Shown: positions 28,856 to 32,762 of the stretch, in pieces
Layout: each line of letters begins with the position of its first letter
How positions within the stretch are numbered: position 1 is the stretch's first letter
Assembly (NCBI GenBank): GCA_934098505.1
Contig: CAKOOR010000001.1
Location: 259,027 to 323,026 of the forward strand
From: an uncultured Bacilli bacterium
Lineage (GTDB): Bacteria; Bacillota_I; Bacilli_A; RF39; UBA660
Reading direction: 5' to 3'
Length of the DNA stretch: 64,000 bases
Made by a program: the position numbers and the translations under genes
Notes under the pieces: generated by a model
Database searches by the model: none
What the model was told of the DNA's origin: nothing
Seen by the model: the letters and a program-made list of their open reading frames with translations, nothing else

Positions 28856-30910
28856 ATGAAAGATAATAATGATACTTTTAATAGTCAAGAAATAAGGAAA
28901 TATTTATTAGAAAAAAGAAACCAATTATTAGAACAAGAAAATCTTGATTTAGATGATAAATTTATAAATGCAAGTTTTGTTAAACTTACTAATTTAGGCA
29001 AAACAACTGAAGATACCAAAAAAATAATAGATAATGTGATTTTAGAAATTCAAAATCTTAAAAATTACTTAAGTGAAAAATTAGCAACCTTATCTTTAGA
29101 AGAAATTTATATTAGAGATGAAAATTTTATAAATGAAATTATGCAAGGATTTGTCTATAATTTTAGAACTCCAGTAGGTGCTAAAAAAGAAATTGATGTT
29201 ATAGTTGATTTTTTGCAAGAAGTTAATAAATTAAAGAAGAAAAATAATGCTCTTGATTATACTATCGAGGAAATAAAATTATTATGTAATCAATTTACTA
29301 TTGCCAAAAGGGAAAAAGATGTAACGAAAATAGATATGTTAACTTTTCTACAAGGAACTGCTTTTTTTCAAAGTCTAAAAATGGAAGATCCTGAATTTAG
29401 TCAAACATATGATAATTATTTATTTAAATTAGCAAAATTATTTAACGACATGCAACTTGAATATTTTAGAAACGATAAGCGTTTAAACAAAAGTGAATTA
29501 CCACTAGCATTCTTTCAAAAATTTTTAACTAAAGCTCAGACTCTATATGATAGTGATATGCAAAAGGTAGAATATTACAAAGATAGTAATCCCAATAGTG
29601 TTATGAATCTCTATAATGTTGGCGGTATTAGAAATATTGATGATGTAAAGAATTTTGCCAGTATATTTGAAAAATATAAACATTATTATTTAGAAAAAAT
29701 AGCTTTTGAAAGAAGTAAGATTTTTACTAGTCTTTTTGATATGAAATTGTTAGCTCAGCAAATTTTAAATAGCGATAAAGAAACATTAAAAGAATTAGAG
29801 GCAATAAGCTCGCGATTTGCTACTAAACAGATGTATCCTCTACAAACAAAGATTTCTTTCGAAACTCTTAAAGAAATGACAATTGATTTTTTTAATAGTG
29901 TTAATCCTCAATTTGCCAGTATTGTTCAAAAGGCAGTTAATGGTGATATAGATATTAAATATGGTAATAATCCTATGGTTAATTGTGTAGAATTAGGTAC
30001 GGCAACAACGGCTGTTTTAACTAATTTTGGCGATTTAAGAGATTTATATTCTATAGTTCATGAGTTTACTCATTATTTAGATTTGACGTTGGGGCAAAAT
30101 GTAACCCGTTCCGTTTTTACAGAAACAAATGCTCAGTGTATGGAACGCTGTCTTGATTCTTATTTACTTAATTTAAATCCGGAAAAGGTAAGAGAATATG
30201 GAATCGATGCTAAAGTCTTAAAAGCTGATGTTGCCAACCGAATAGTTTCTACTTTCTTTACTCGTTTTAATTGTGTAAAAGAAGTGGCGACAAGATCAAT
30301 GGCTAATGAAACACCTAATTTAGCAAAAGATAATACTTACGTTCTTTCACAATTATACTCAACTGTATTCAGCAAATTATCAAGGGATGAACAAATAGTA
30401 AGAATAAATGCTATGGTAAATGTTACGAGAAATAATGACTTAACAACTTATTTAAAATTAATTCCTTGTGATTTAACAAGACAAAATTTAAATCGGAGTA
30501 ATATTGTGGCTGATTCTTTACAACAAGTTTGGACAACTTATCAGCAAAGAGAATTAGAAGCTAAACATTCAGAAGATAATCAAGATTTGGAAAATTCGCT
30601 ATCAAAGCCTGATAAGCAAAATTTGTTTGGAGAACAACGTGACAAACGAATTAAAGCCCAAAGTCATTTTGATACTATGAGTTTGCAGGATAGAGAAACA
30701 TTTGCAAAAATGCAGGAAGAAGCCAAGAAGCTTAAGCTTGTTGCTAATAAAGACATGCCTATACGTTTGACTTTAGCAAAAAAAGATAAAGAAAATACCA
30801 GCAATGATTCGACTAGTAATGGTTTTATCAGTATTTTGCTTTTAAGTTTAAGTACTGGTTTTATTTCAGGAATGGTTGCGATGGCGACATATTTATTAAT
30901 AAAAAGATAA
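28856..30910 (+). CDS. C-terminally membrane-anchored protein with an HExxH (gluzincin-like) motif
   Basis: HEFTHY at about residue 400 with a downstream Glu (TETNAQ). A single C-terminal TM segment (FISILLLSLSTGFISGMVAMATYLLI) with no N-terminal signal. Its C-terminal ~90 aa are paralogous to the next gene. Confidence 0.5.
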   Translation: MKDNNDTFNSQEIRKYLLEKRNQLLEQENLDLDDKFINASFVKLTNLGKTTEDTKKIIDNVILEIQNLKNYLSEKLATLSLEEIYIRDENFINEIMQGFVYNFRTPVGAKKEIDVIVDFLQEVNKLKKKNNALDYTIEEIKLLCNQFTIAKREKDVTKIDMLTFLQGTAFFQSLKMEDPEFSQTYDNYLFKLAKLFNDMQLEYFRNDKRLNKSELPLAFFQKFLTKAQTLYDSDMQKVEYYKDSNPNSVMNLYNVGGIRNIDDVKNFASIFEKYKHYYLEKIAFERSKIFTSLFDMKLLAQQILNSDKETLKELEAISSRFATKQMYPLQTKISFETLKEMTIDFFNSVNPQFASIVQKAVNGDIDIKYGNNPMVNCVELGTATTAVLTNFGDLRDLYSIVHEFTHYLDLTLGQNVTRSVFTETNAQCMERCLDSYLLNLNPEKVREYGIDAKVLKADVANRIVSTFFTRFNCVKEVATRSMANETPNLAKDNTYVLSQLYSTVFSKLSRDEQIVRINAMVNVTRNNDLTTYLKLIPCDLTRQNLNRSNIVADSLQQVWTTYQQRELEAKHSEDNQDLENSLSKPDKQNLFGEQRDKRIKAQSHFDTMSLQDRETFAKMQEEAKKLKLVANKDMPIRLTLAKKDKENTSNDSTSNGFISILLLSLSTGFISGMVAMATYLLIKR

Positions 30911-30923
30911 AAAGGAGTAAGAA

Positions 30924-32762
30924 ATGAATAATAACGAATTAAAAGAAGAAAGTTATTTACTATATTTTTCACAAGAAATGTTAGAAAAGTATGGCTTAAC
31001 TTTAGAAGATAAGGAAATGATAGTAAATTTTGTAGAACGAGGAATTGCTGAGCGATTATATACTAATACTGATGATTTTCAGCATGATTTAAAACATATT
31101 GAAAAAGTTCTAACGTATGTTAAGATGCTTACAAATGGGATTAATAATCCCCAAATTAGGCAAGATTTACTTTTAACGGCCGCTTTGTATCATGATATTG
31201 GCAAAGCTATGGGAGCTTCTAATAAAACTCATGGAGTGGTTGGGGCTCAAGAATTTGCTAAGTTGAGTCAAGAAAATATGTCACCTAAAGATATTGAAAT
31301 TATTAAGATATTAATTGAACAACATGATAAAGAAGATGATAATATTGATTTTACAGATAAAGATTACTCTTTAGAAGAACAACAAGCAATTCAACTCATG
31401 GCAAACATTTTAAAAGATGCAGATGCGCTGGATAGAAATAGACTTAATTATCCAGCACCATTTGGCAATTGCGATGTAAATAAACTTAGAACGGTGGCAG
31501 CTAAGGAAATATTATCATTAACAAATAGTTTTTATCATGATTATTATGAAACAATAATTAAGATTAGAGAACAAAGAAGTGGGACTAAAATTTTAAATAA
31601 TTATGAAAAGTTAGAAGAATGGTATGCTAACTATGAAAATGGAAAAGAAAATATGTTACATGCTTCACTTGATGCAAGTATTGATGCTTTAAAACCAAGA
31701 AGAAGTACGCAAAAAGGAGCTTATGTTTACGCTGGTATCGATCCAACTGATTGTATGAAAATGGCGACTTTTCGATTGTCATTTCTCTTTGATGGCCATA
31801 AAGAAAATGGCATGCAGATTTTAAACGAAACATTTCCTCATACGGTTGATGAAGCTTTAGATGGCAAATTTATTACTTTCTACTTGCTACCTAATGAATT
31901 ATTTCACGAATATGTTAGACAAGTAACAGCATCACCTAATCGCGAATGGGTTTCTTCAAGTGTAGTTGTACCAAAGGAACAAATATCATTTGAAGCTAAA
32001 GAATTGGTACAATATTTAATTGATACAAAAAGATTTGCCATTAGACATAATGAGTCCCAAGAAGTGAGAATGGCGGCTTTTGTCAGAATGTTTAGGACTT
32101 ACATTTGGGGAATAGCTGAGATGGAGGAAAATCCTGGTATCTTTGAGCAAAAGTGGCAACAATTACAGTCTATAGTTAAATGTTATGAAACTTATTGCCC
32201 AAATATAATGGCTAAAATGACTATTATAAGACAAGCTATTGATGATGATATAAAAAACTATATTGTTGATTTTCAAGAGAAAAATGGCAGAAAACCAACT
32301 TTAAGCAATGAAGCAGAAATTTTAAAACCAGTTCAAAGTAATTTTCTTGGTCATTATTTTGCCAAGTTACCTAATGGTAAACTCGATTGGCATCATTTGA
32401 ATATGGAATATATTGAGCAAATTCTAAATAAGTATGGTTATTCAATGGACAAAAGTCCAGAAAAGGTAAGCAGCTTATTAGCTGATAAGGTAAAAACGAG
32501 GCAAGAATCGCAAAAACATTTTACTACGATGAATTTGGAAGATAAAGAAACATTTAAAACTATGCAAGCTATTAATGAAAAAGAAAATAATTTAGAAAAG
32601 AGTAAGGATACTCTTAGAAAAACATTGATAAAAAAAGAAAATACAGGTACAAATAATAGTATTGATAATGGTTATATCAGCACGTTACTTTTAATTTTAA
32701 GCGTTGGTTTTATTGCGGGTGCTTTAGTGGTTTTGTCTTACTTTTTTATTAGTCGAGGTTAG
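30924..32762 (+). CDS. C-terminally membrane-anchored HD-domain protein
   Basis: An N-terminal HD motif (…LKHIEKV…AALYHDIGK…DADALDR). A C-terminal module HFTTMNLEDKETFKTMQ… followed by the TM segment YISTLLLILSVGFIAGALVVLSYFFI, paralogous to the upstream gene. Confidence 0.5.
   Translation: MNNNELKEESYLLYFSQEMLEKYGLTLEDKEMIVNFVERGIAERLYTNTDDFQHDLKHIEKVLTYVKMLTNGINNPQIRQDLLLTAALYHDIGKAMGASNKTHGVVGAQEFAKLSQENMSPKDIEIIKILIEQHDKEDDNIDFTDKDYSLEEQQAIQLMANILKDADALDRNRLNYPAPFGNCDVNKLRTVAAKEILSLTNSFYHDYYETIIKIREQRSGTKILNNYEKLEEWYANYENGKENMLHASLDASIDALKPRRSTQKGAYVYAGIDPTDCMKMATFRLSFLFDGHKENGMQILNETFPHTVDEALDGKFITFYLLPNELFHEYVRQVTASPNREWVSSSVVVPKEQISFEAKELVQYLIDTKRFAIRHNESQEVRMAAFVRMFRTYIWGIAEMEENPGIFEQKWQQLQSIVKCYETYCPNIMAKMTIIRQAIDDDIKNYIVDFQEKNGRKPTLSNEAEILKPVQSNFLGHYFAKLPNGKLDWHHLNMEYIEQILNKYGYSMDKSPEKVSSLLADKVKTRQESQKHFTTMNLEDKETFKTMQAINEKENNLEKSKDTLRKTLIKKENTGTNNSIDNGYISTLLLILSVGFIAGALVVLSYFFISRG

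Follow-up and report, generated by a model that had tools for sequence, protein, structure and literature searches.

We analyzed a 64,000-nucleotide stretch of DNA from an uncultured Bacilli bacterium (contig CAKOOR010000001.1, positions 259,027 to 323,026; "the window" hereafter) and concentrated on two adjacent genes, which encode a protein with an HExxH zinc-binding motif (open reading frame A, ORF-A) and an HD phosphohydrolase with extra domains (ORF-B). These non-homologous enzymes end in homologous C-terminal membrane-anchor modules, and in a relative of the host the two modules have been kept alike by gene conversion. The finding is real: parts of known kinds (zincin, HD hydrolase, tail anchor) occur here in an undescribed combination that shows unusual evolutionary behavior. 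In the explanation that we favor, with a probability of about 0.55, ORF-A, ORF-B and the small downstream protein C191 form one transcription unit, and the two tail-anchored enzymes face the cytoplasm and are held together at the membrane. A first-pass annotation, made by a model from the DNA letters and their open reading frames, could not assign the pair to any described system. This still holds, since matches in PADLOC, NCBIfam and PHROGs were unspecific and the source annotations of the relatives read only "uncharacterized" or "HD domain-containing protein". The positions of all features are collected in Table 1.

Homologous C-termini of ORF-A and ORF-B

The first-pass annotation described both proteins as lacking an N-terminal signal sequence and as sharing a C-terminal module followed by a single transmembrane (TM) helix. 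BLASTP aligned residues 585-684 of ORF-A with residues 512-611 of ORF-B at 43% identity and 62% positives (E = 2e-16, composition-adjusted). The alignment was compared with shuffled sequences, separately for the soluble stalk (ORF-A 585-652 and ORF-B 512-580) and for the part that comprises the G[FY] motif and the TM helix. The stalks scored 104 against 30.3 ± 5.6 for the shuffles (z = 13.2) and the TM parts 80 against 23.1 ± 4.8 (z = 11.8). Because none of 2000 shuffles equalled either score, the similarity is homology and not the product of low complexity, a possibility that the annotation had left open, or of TM-helix composition alone. Searching the window with the module by tblastn returned two copies, those of ORF-A and ORF-B only.

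Each protein has a sole hydrophobic segment, which lies at its extreme C-terminus (residues 656-678 in ORF-A and 582-612 in ORF-B). Both N-termini are hydrophilic; 11-residue hydropathy over their first 40 residues peaks at −0.18 and 0.45, compared to 3.59 for a signal-anchor protein encoded at position 33440 (D186, see below). Both observations on the protein ends were thus correct.

Layout, carriers and topology of the anchor module

In ORF-A the module consists of a charged helical stalk, a basic patch, an N/S/T-rich spacer, the pair G656-F657, a TM helix containing GFISG (a GxxxG motif) and a KR tail. In the ORF-B module the stalk and basic patch lead through a polar spacer to G583-Y584, after which come a TM helix with GFIAG and an SRG tail. 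The general layout in the relatives comprises a helix rich in K, Q and E, then a basic patch and an N/S/T/G spacer, after which come an invariant Gly with Phe or Tyr directly behind it, about 25 hydrophobic residues and a tail of 0-3 residues, in most cases with one Lys or Arg. This layout is common to about half of the HD family and to several members of the zincin family (P0082, P0087 and P0088). All 30 family members inspected have one C-terminal TM helix, a tail of 0-3 residues and a hydrophilic N-terminus, and an N-terminal signal peptide was found in none of them. Both anchors of the window contain the GxxxG motif, as do 12 of 29 in the family. In P0001, a protein from other samples that is 99% identical to ORF-A, the anchor helix reads AFISE in place of GFISG, by which the GxxxG motif is lost and a Glu enters the TM segment; this may be strain variation or a sequencing error.

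A search of 5.8 billion proteins with an anchor profile returned only two HD-family fragments, and the diversity of the cargo was therefore read from the fetched loci. The heads seen on the module so far are two kinds of zincin, the HD domain combined with a DUF6886-like domain as in ORF-B (HD-DUF6886), an alpha/beta hydrolase, a GH10 plus PHP combination and a HopA1-like domain. Carriers of this anchor style outside the two families are the GH10 plus PHP protein (L020) and a 317-residue protein (L042, L063). The former, a tail-anchored protein of 1086 residues (L020 9969-13229), also has an 85-residue N-terminal helical module in common with P0082, a mini-M3 protein from another sample (L152 1125-2822; 43% identity, E = 8e-15). 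This is a second shared module, located at the opposite end of the protein.

ORF-A and ORF-B have the features of tail-anchored proteins, as their only TM segment lies within the final ~30 residues and a signal is missing from the N-terminus. Tail-anchored proteins are established in bacteria, and so is their insertion by way of YidC (PMC3087755, PMC6794478, PMC3426401). Like the Streptomyces tail-anchored membrane proteins and DjlC, Flk and TssL of E. coli, which have their single TM helix at the extreme C-terminus and no N-terminal signal, the window proteins would be expected to keep their bulk in the cytoplasm and to be inserted post-translationally by a YidC-type route. Unlike in those proteins, the anchor in the window is a conserved, transferable module of ~100 residues, comprising the stalk, the G[FY] motif and the GxxxG helix, which is common to non-homologous enzymes of one locus and of which the copies are kept alike by gene conversion.

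The layout also resembles C-terminal sorting signals (LPXTG/sortase, PEP-CTERM/exosortase, PGF-CTERM/archaeosortase and GlyGly-CTERM/rhombosortase), in which a motif precedes a C-terminal TM helix and a basic tail and which occur on varied cargo. If the module were such a sorting or anchoring signal, an export route would recognize the C-terminus and the cargo would be surface enzymes that scavenge peptides, nucleotides and polysaccharides. The tripartite order of invariant Gly-aromatic pair, TM helix and short basic tail after an N/S/T/G-rich spacer agrees with this, and peptidase, phosphodiesterase, GH10 xylanase with PHP domain and esterase-like cargo would suit an extracellular role. We nevertheless consider surface display quite unlikely, as every described C-terminal sorting system needs the signal peptide that all 30 members lack. 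Furthermore, the NCBIfam search gave no CTERM sorting-domain model, HD and M3-type enzymes are typically cytoplasmic, and no linked gene for a sortase, exosortase or rhombosortase was seen by inspection of the loci.

ORF-A, a predicted minimal M3-like zincin

ORF-A is composed of an N-terminal region (residues 1 to ~315), a mini-M3-like zincin core, the stalk and the membrane anchor. It gave no match in Pfam (E ≤ 0.1), NCBIfam, PADLOC or a PDB sequence search. A word-indexed search of 5.8 billion proteins found four homologue clusters, with conservation confined to residues ~320-560. Exhaustive HMMER searching with this core retrieved 102 representative proteins at E ≤ 1e-3, 64 of them at E ≤ 1e-10, and the core family comprises about 100 clusters at 50% identity for which Pfam has no model. 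The relatives are mainly standalone proteins of 310-360 residues, and some are fusions with an alpha/beta-hydrolase-like domain (GYSSSG motif, recognized by eye), a GNAT domain or a second HExxH domain.

Aligning 61 members showed no variation at H402 and E430 and hardly any at E403, H406 and E423. The putative zinc metalloprotease motif of the first-pass annotation, HEFTH (residues 402-406) with a Glu downstream, is borne out in this way, with E423 and E430 following the motif. When the 61-member profile was searched against the PDB, it matched oligoendopeptidase F (2qr4; PepF, family M3B) at E = 3.3e-5 over the active-site region, with the HExxH motif and the downstream Glu aligned. The HExxH motif of ORF-A and the E-x-x-x-x-x-x-E segment after it resemble HEMGH...AEIASTTNE of PepF, and E423 pairs with the Glu of AEIAS in 2qr4.

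The differences from PepF are considerable. The conserved core spans ~250 residues as compared to ~600 in M3 enzymes with their two lobes, the distance from the second His to the Glu is 17 residues instead of 24 as in 2qr4, and ORF-A adds the 315-residue N-terminal region and the tail anchor. The Pfam M3 model (PF01432), which does not match ORF-A, matches one of the 61 relatives, weakly (E = 2.3e-3). From these profile comparisons we conclude that ORF-A carries a putative minimal and divergent M3B-like zincin core, remotely related to oligoendopeptidase F and without a curated family model, and that it is not a canonical PepF, one of the ordinary identities that had been considered. A full two-lobed M3 fold is unlikely because the core has only ~250 residues and many relatives are 310-360 residues long in total.

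ORF-B, an HD phosphohydrolase with two additional domains

The HD motif reported at the N-terminus of ORF-B corresponds to a Pfam match with PF01966 over residues 57-171 (E = 3.3e-12; 47.2 bits against a cut-off of 22) and to the HDIG model TIGR00277 (31 bits against a cut-off of 27.6). Of the metal ligands, H58 and D91 are invariant in the family, and H54, H90, H103, H134, D165, D167 and D170 are nearly invariant. On the basis of these profiles and ligands the HD domain is certain. The 75 homologue clusters of ORF-B have a core of ~500 residues in common, and the HD plus DUF6886-like family comprises more than 60 clusters at 90% identity.

The AlphaFold2 model of ORF-B has a mean predicted local distance difference test score (pLDDT) of 86.6 and a predicted template modeling score of 0.78. 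It shows a helical HD segment (residues 1-220), an alpha/beta segment (240-375), a second helical segment (379-503), a poorly ordered helical stalk (pLDDT 32-64) and a C-terminal TM helix (583-611, pLDDT ~92). In a Foldseek comparison with the PDB only the HD part found partners, which were 2pq7, domain III of PPX/GppA and HD-GYP proteins; the Legionella phosphodiesterase DupA/SdeD was a weak match. The family profile matched 5z7c (V-cGAP3) at E = 2.2e-5, the matches to 5z7c and 4mcw covering only ~40 residues around HDIGK.

HD-GYP proteins carry an HHE..DG.GYP (HHExxDGxGYP) signature. ORF-B reads QHDKEDDNIDF by direct reading and the GYP motif is missing, so that a standard HD-GYP protein, the other ordinary identity that had been considered, can be set aside. 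ORF-B shares its HD fold and complete metal-ligand set with the HDIG and HD-GYP families (PF01966, TIGR00277; 2pq7, 5z7c, 4mcw) and differs from them by the fusion to alpha/beta and helical domains that are foreign to those families and by its C-terminal membrane anchor. It is an HDIG-type phosphohydrolase that most probably acts on nucleotides, as a phosphodiesterase or phosphatase. RNase Y, PgpH and GdpP of Firmicutes are HD or DHH nucleotide or RNA phosphodiesterases that are tethered at the inner membrane face, sometimes on a coiled-coil stalk. Their anchoring is N-terminal or multi-pass and their accessory domains are of the KH, PAS/GGDEF and 7TM kinds; to our knowledge ORF-B has no sequence kinship with them beyond the HD fold.

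The alpha/beta domain (domain 2) is the most conserved part of ORF-B. Conserved residues are H246 in the signature segment HAS, Y267 and Y269 in YVYAG, S286, K315, Y330, and E341 in EWVS. Modeled alone, the domain reached a pLDDT of 86.9. Foldseek found no match for it in the PDB (best E = 0.31), and its structure matches were uncharacterized viral proteins (E = 6e-7 and 1e-6). The DUF6886 model (PF21820) matched 14 of 19 domain-2 sequences weakly, all below threshold (best E = 2.6e-4), and did not match domain 2 of ORF-B itself. Literature searches on DUF6886, PF21820 and tail-anchored proteins of Mollicutes yielded nothing relevant. An apparent zincin and DUF6886-like fusion seen by eye (P0100) was discarded, as it received no support from the domain-2 hidden Markov model.

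Since the conserved H246, Y267/Y269 and E341 are placed on predicted strands in the order H...Y...E, we examined an ADP-ribosyltransferase (ART) fold for domain 2. The model of a phage DarT gave a weak match (E = 0.036, probability 0.93). No ART fold occurred among the Foldseek matches in the PDB, a profile search of PDB sequences gave no support for an ART, and hhalign of domain 2 against the ART-like DUF3990 protein encoded in the window was negative. The comparisons lean against an ART fold, which would be speculation. Domain 2 is probably functional in its own right because it is intact in P0062, a 764-residue relative with a fused HopA1-like domain (PF17914) in which the HD motif is lost or degenerate.

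Concerted evolution of the two anchors

The smc and rnc genes that lie upstream of the pair have 94% identity with their counterparts in "Mycoplasma sp. CAG:956" (locus L003, HF993102.1), so the host is a close relative of this human-gut, Mycoplasma-like member of the Bacilli. In L003 the two anchor modules share 82% of their residues and, at the DNA level, a 217-nt tract with 96.8% identity. Between the window and L003, identity is only 50% for the orthologous ORF-B modules, as compared to 71% for the rest of ORF-B. The anchors of orthologues diverge faster than the catalytic domains, whereas those of neighboring, non-homologous enzymes in L003 have been kept alike by gene conversion over the module.

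Traces of exchange were also found in other loci. P0004, an A-type zincin from a distant lineage (L154 232-2377), has its anchor in a shifted frame and nearly identical to the anchor of the HD protein P0012. The gene after P0004 is a homologue of the 194-residue gene that trails the HD gene in L155 (L155 8001-11032). A 5'-truncated A-type gene in L151 (OIYO01005874.1, 237-1860) ends in 32 residues that are 100% identical to the ORF-B-type anchor of L002; homologues of C191 and D186 follow directly and the HD gene is missing. Either recombination between the 3' modules deleted the HD gene here or the contig is an assembly chimera. Together, the L151, P0004 and L003 cases point to recombination between the two 3' repeats, with assembly chimeras being possible for the two short contigs.

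Operon signals and the downstream gene C191

ORF-B starts 13 nt after the stop codon of ORF-A, with a strong ribosome binding site (AAAGGAG) 7 nt upstream of its ATG. The next gene, encoding C191, follows 1 nt past the ORF-B stop, not 2 nt as first reported, and has a GAGG inside the end of ORF-B. This overlap of signals suggests that translation of ORF-B and C191 may be coupled. No convincing terminator was found between ORF-A, ORF-B and C191. A consensus scan of the 121-nt gap upstream of ORF-A gave a promoter-like site (TTGCTA-16-TACAAT) with an extended −10 region (TG before the second hexamer). As the number of such sites in the region is no higher than in shuffled sequences, it is a weak candidate for the operon promoter.

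C191 had no match in Pfam, NCBIfam, PADLOC or PHROGs. Homologues are encoded directly after the HD gene or one gene later in L002 (76% identity), L003 (57%), L004 (36%), and L151 and L155 (42%), and within the ORF-B clade C191 is conserved as the partner downstream of HD-DUF6886. We rejected the broader idea of a universal downstream partner of ~200 residues: L007-L011 have rpiB in this position, and only the C191 family (window, L002, L003, L004, L151 and L155) is consistent.

Linkage of HExxH proteins with HD-DUF6886

Full-length relatives occur in genomes labeled Bacilli, Tenericutes, Mycoplasma sp. CAG:956 and Candidatus Ventrenecus, which come from the guts of humans, rabbits, sheep and chickens, and the ORF-A and ORF-B clusters are each represented on more than 50 contigs. 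The PHROGs and the viral contigs of IMG/VR contained nothing beyond generic HD domains, and a phage or plasmid origin was rejected on these grounds.

The first-pass annotation asked for a conserved linkage of the two genes. The A-B gene pair itself is retained, but only in the close relatives L002 and L003; in more distant lineages it is other HExxH domains that are linked to HD-DUF6886, by fusion or adjacency. L002 has the same gene order as the window. In L003 the slot after smc is occupied by a 756-residue tail-anchored protein with two different HExxH motifs, followed by the HD protein, C191 and proteins resembling the C-terminal domain of the RNA polymerase alpha subunit (alpha-CTD-like). 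The second HExxH domain of the 756-residue protein is homologous to the N-terminal domain of P0003. An 864-residue HD form (L018/L019) carries an N-terminal extension whose homologues are HExxH domains in the proteins that occupy the A position in L001 and L003 (E = 3e-15 and 2.5e-11). The long HD forms of L005 and L013 have another HExxH extension, an HEILH domain, and in L014 and L015 a separate HExxH protein with a weak Peptidase_MA_2 match is encoded immediately upstream of the HD gene. The extension of the HD protein in L020 is instead alpha/beta-hydrolase-like, of the same kind as is fused to mini-M3 cores elsewhere. HExxH and HD-DUF6886 domains have been joined repeatedly, as neighbors or on one chain, which by the classical reading of such associations argues for a shared function.

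Some further arrangements were noted in the fetched loci. A 301-residue HExxH protein encoded on the opposite strand next to the HD gene in L006 and L010 falls outside the mini-M3 family and is unassigned in Pfam. In L001 a separate 372-residue protein with a HopA1-like domain (PF17914; 2053-3171) is encoded directly downstream of the A-type gene. The HD-DUF6886 cluster of L155 (11045-14601, on a 26-kb contig) adjoins a Mob_Pre relaxase-like gene and a serine recombinase gene, which hints that a mobile element carries the cluster in some lineages.

One could also regard ORF-A and ORF-B as independent enzymes that came to share an anchor through local copying of a 3' segment, without functional meaning. 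The modules in the window are only 45% identical, ORF-A-type cores are mostly standalone proteins elsewhere and HD-DUF6886 often occurs without an HExxH partner, all of which such a chance arrangement would accommodate. It would leave unexplained the repeated linkage of HD-DUF6886, as neighbor or fusion partner, to various HExxH families in at least four lineages, as well as the re-homogenized modules of L003, the second lineage in which A-type and B-type proteins share an anchor, and the tight spacing and coupled start sites of the genes. We consider it very unlikely.

Proposed co-anchoring of the two enzymes

In the favored explanation both proteins, lacking a signal peptide, would enter the membrane after translation by the YidC-dependent route described for tail-anchored proteins in bacteria, and would keep their catalytic domains in the cytoplasm. 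Both enzymes would be carried by the common module to one site on the membrane, where a homo- or hetero-oligomer would probably form through the stalk and the GxxxG helix. Co-anchoring would then do what the single-chain HExxH-HD-DUF6886 fusions do in related lineages. At the DNA level the 3' modules would act as direct repeats, which recombination keeps alike in a genome and through which cargo is occasionally swapped or deleted.

Several observations weigh against this explanation. The net charge is about +1.4 in the 15 residues before the TM helix and about +1 in the tail, which leaves the positive-inside rule undecided. The N/S/T/G-rich spacer before the TM helix resembles the stalks of surface proteins, and a GH10 xylanase domain, usually extracellular, is found on one anchor of the same type. 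The ORF-A-type core adjoins HD-DUF6886 only in the window's own clade, and many HD-DUF6886 genes have no HExxH neighbor and lie among housekeeping genes such as rpiB. Finally, the two modules of the window are themselves only 45% identical in protein and 66% in DNA; conversion is episodic and the window modules are older copies.

The pair matters for several reasons. It brings to light two uncharted families, the minimal M3-like zincin and the HD plus DUF6886-like proteins, from gut Bacilli and "Tenericutes" lineages that are known almost only from metagenomes. A whole anchor module that is common to non-homologous neighbor enzymes offers a testable case for the membrane targeting, and perhaps pairing, of cytoplasmic bacterial enzymes without signal peptides. 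Furthermore, the HExxH/HD-DUF6886 fusions predict that a peptidase and a phosphohydrolase act on the same pathway.

Genomic context and a possible role in conflict

Table 1. Features of the pair and its surroundings in the window (aa, amino acids).
Feature	Position	Strand	Basis or remark
rnc	24118-24780	+	ordinary chromosomal gene
smc	24793-27744	+	ordinary chromosomal gene
PDC-M13 candidate defense cassette, three genes	27818-28734		PADLOC; between smc and ORF-A
Promoter-like site, TTGCTA-16-TACAAT, extended −10	28786..28813	+	consensus scan only
ORF-A, 684 aa, tail-anchored HExxH protein	28856..30910	+	open reading frame
Zincin core of ORF-A (predicted), aa ~320-560	29813..30535	+	conservation, profile searches
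HEFTH, aa 402-406	30059-30073	+	zinc-binding motif
E423	30122-30124	+	
E430	30143-30145	+	
C-terminal module of ORF-A, aa 585-684	30608..30907	+	TM ~30824-30901
ORF-B, 612 aa, tail-anchored HD phosphohydrolase with extra domains	30924..32762	+	open reading frame
HD/HDIG catalytic domain, Pfam aa 57-171 (whole helical domain aa ~1-220)	31092..31436	+	PF01966, TIGR00277
Domain 2, alpha/beta, aa 222-400	31587..32123	+	conservation, model
Helical domain 3, aa ~401-505	32124..32438	+	conserved across the ~500-aa family core, model
C-terminal module of ORF-B, aa 512-612	32457..32759	+	TM ~32670-32756
C191, 191-aa soluble protein	32764..33339	+	ATG 1 nt past ORF-B stop
D186, 186-aa protein, N-terminal membrane anchor	33440..34000	+	hydropathy of first 40 aa
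Alpha-CTD-like protein, 359 aa	34107-35186		RNA polymerase alpha-CTD/helix-hairpin-helix-like repeats, PF03118 (E = 3e-10)
Alpha-CTD-like protein, 674 aa, paralogue of the preceding	35272-37296		as above
Phosphoketolase-like gene (xfp)	37397-39700	+	ordinary chromosomal gene

The interval between smc and the phosphoketolase gene contains the PDC-M13 cassette, ORF-A, ORF-B, C191, D186 and two alpha-CTD-like proteins. The layout of this locus is the same in L002 and CAG:956 (L003), with the exceptions given below.

This context and the variety of heads could also indicate a conflict system, in which membrane-anchored effectors or toxins (anti-phage, inter-bacterial or anti-host) present swappable heads on a constant anchor and C191 serves as immunity factor, regulator or chaperone. 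Compared with CAG:956 the locus evolves fast: rnc and smc are 94% and xfp 84% identical, as against ~67-71% for ORF-B, 57% for C191 and 41-47% for the alpha-CTD-like proteins, and the A gene is replaced by one of different domain architecture. The heads, comprising two HExxH families, alpha/beta hydrolase, GNAT, transglutaminase-like (by eye only), GH10 plus PHP and HopA1-like domains, would suit effectors, and weak matches to the "effector" family Peptidase_M91 were obtained. C191, a small conserved gene directly downstream, occupies the usual position of an immunity gene. A candidate defense cassette lies immediately upstream in the window, and the recombinase-associated cluster of L155 was mentioned above.

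Against this, PADLOC gave no match for ORF-A or C191 and for ORF-B only a weak similarity to Cas3-HD (E ≥ 2e-3), by which a known defense system was rejected. PHROG and viral-contig relatives are limited to generic HD domains, the locus lies on the chromosome, in synteny, in three related genomes, and many HD-DUF6886 genes reside among housekeeping genes without C191. The upstream cassette is missing from the syntenic L003 locus and is therefore an independent insertion, and no secretion apparatus is encoded nearby. A conflict role appears unlikely; if true, the proteins would represent a new class of modular membrane-anchored effectors.

A bolder proposal extends the conversion data to a cargo-swapping system of Mycoplasma-like gut Bacilli, with the constant 3' module acting both as a recombination handle for swapping, fusing or deleting enzymatic heads and as a membrane dimerization device for mixed enzyme complexes. 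In its boldest version domain 2 would be a cryptic ART-like domain and the unit a membrane-anchored effector. Only if domain 2 were an ART would ORF-B join a transferase and a phosphodiesterase on one chain, which is the domain logic of the Legionella SidE effectors. We hold this proposal to be improbable.

D186 had been described as a secreted protein. It has an N-terminal hydrophobic anchor without an obvious cleavage or lipobox motif, and a better description is that of a signal-anchor protein. It is present in L002 and L151 and missing from the syntenic L003 locus, and is probably not a core part of the unit. Weak ZorB/MotB-like PADLOC matches of D186 over the TM region (E = 5e-5) probably reflect TM composition.

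The PDC-M13 cassette encodes a DUF3990 ART-like protein, an 83-residue protein and a DUF3791 protein (PADLOC E = 2.8e-67, 3.9e-32 and 2.4e-29). Its last gene is present in L002. The two alpha-CTD-like paralogues are kept in L002 and L003 and are fast-evolving in comparison with smc. The G+C content of the window is 24-34% in 2-kb blocks, mainly 26-30%, and a T-box leader and one tRNA are also encoded in it.

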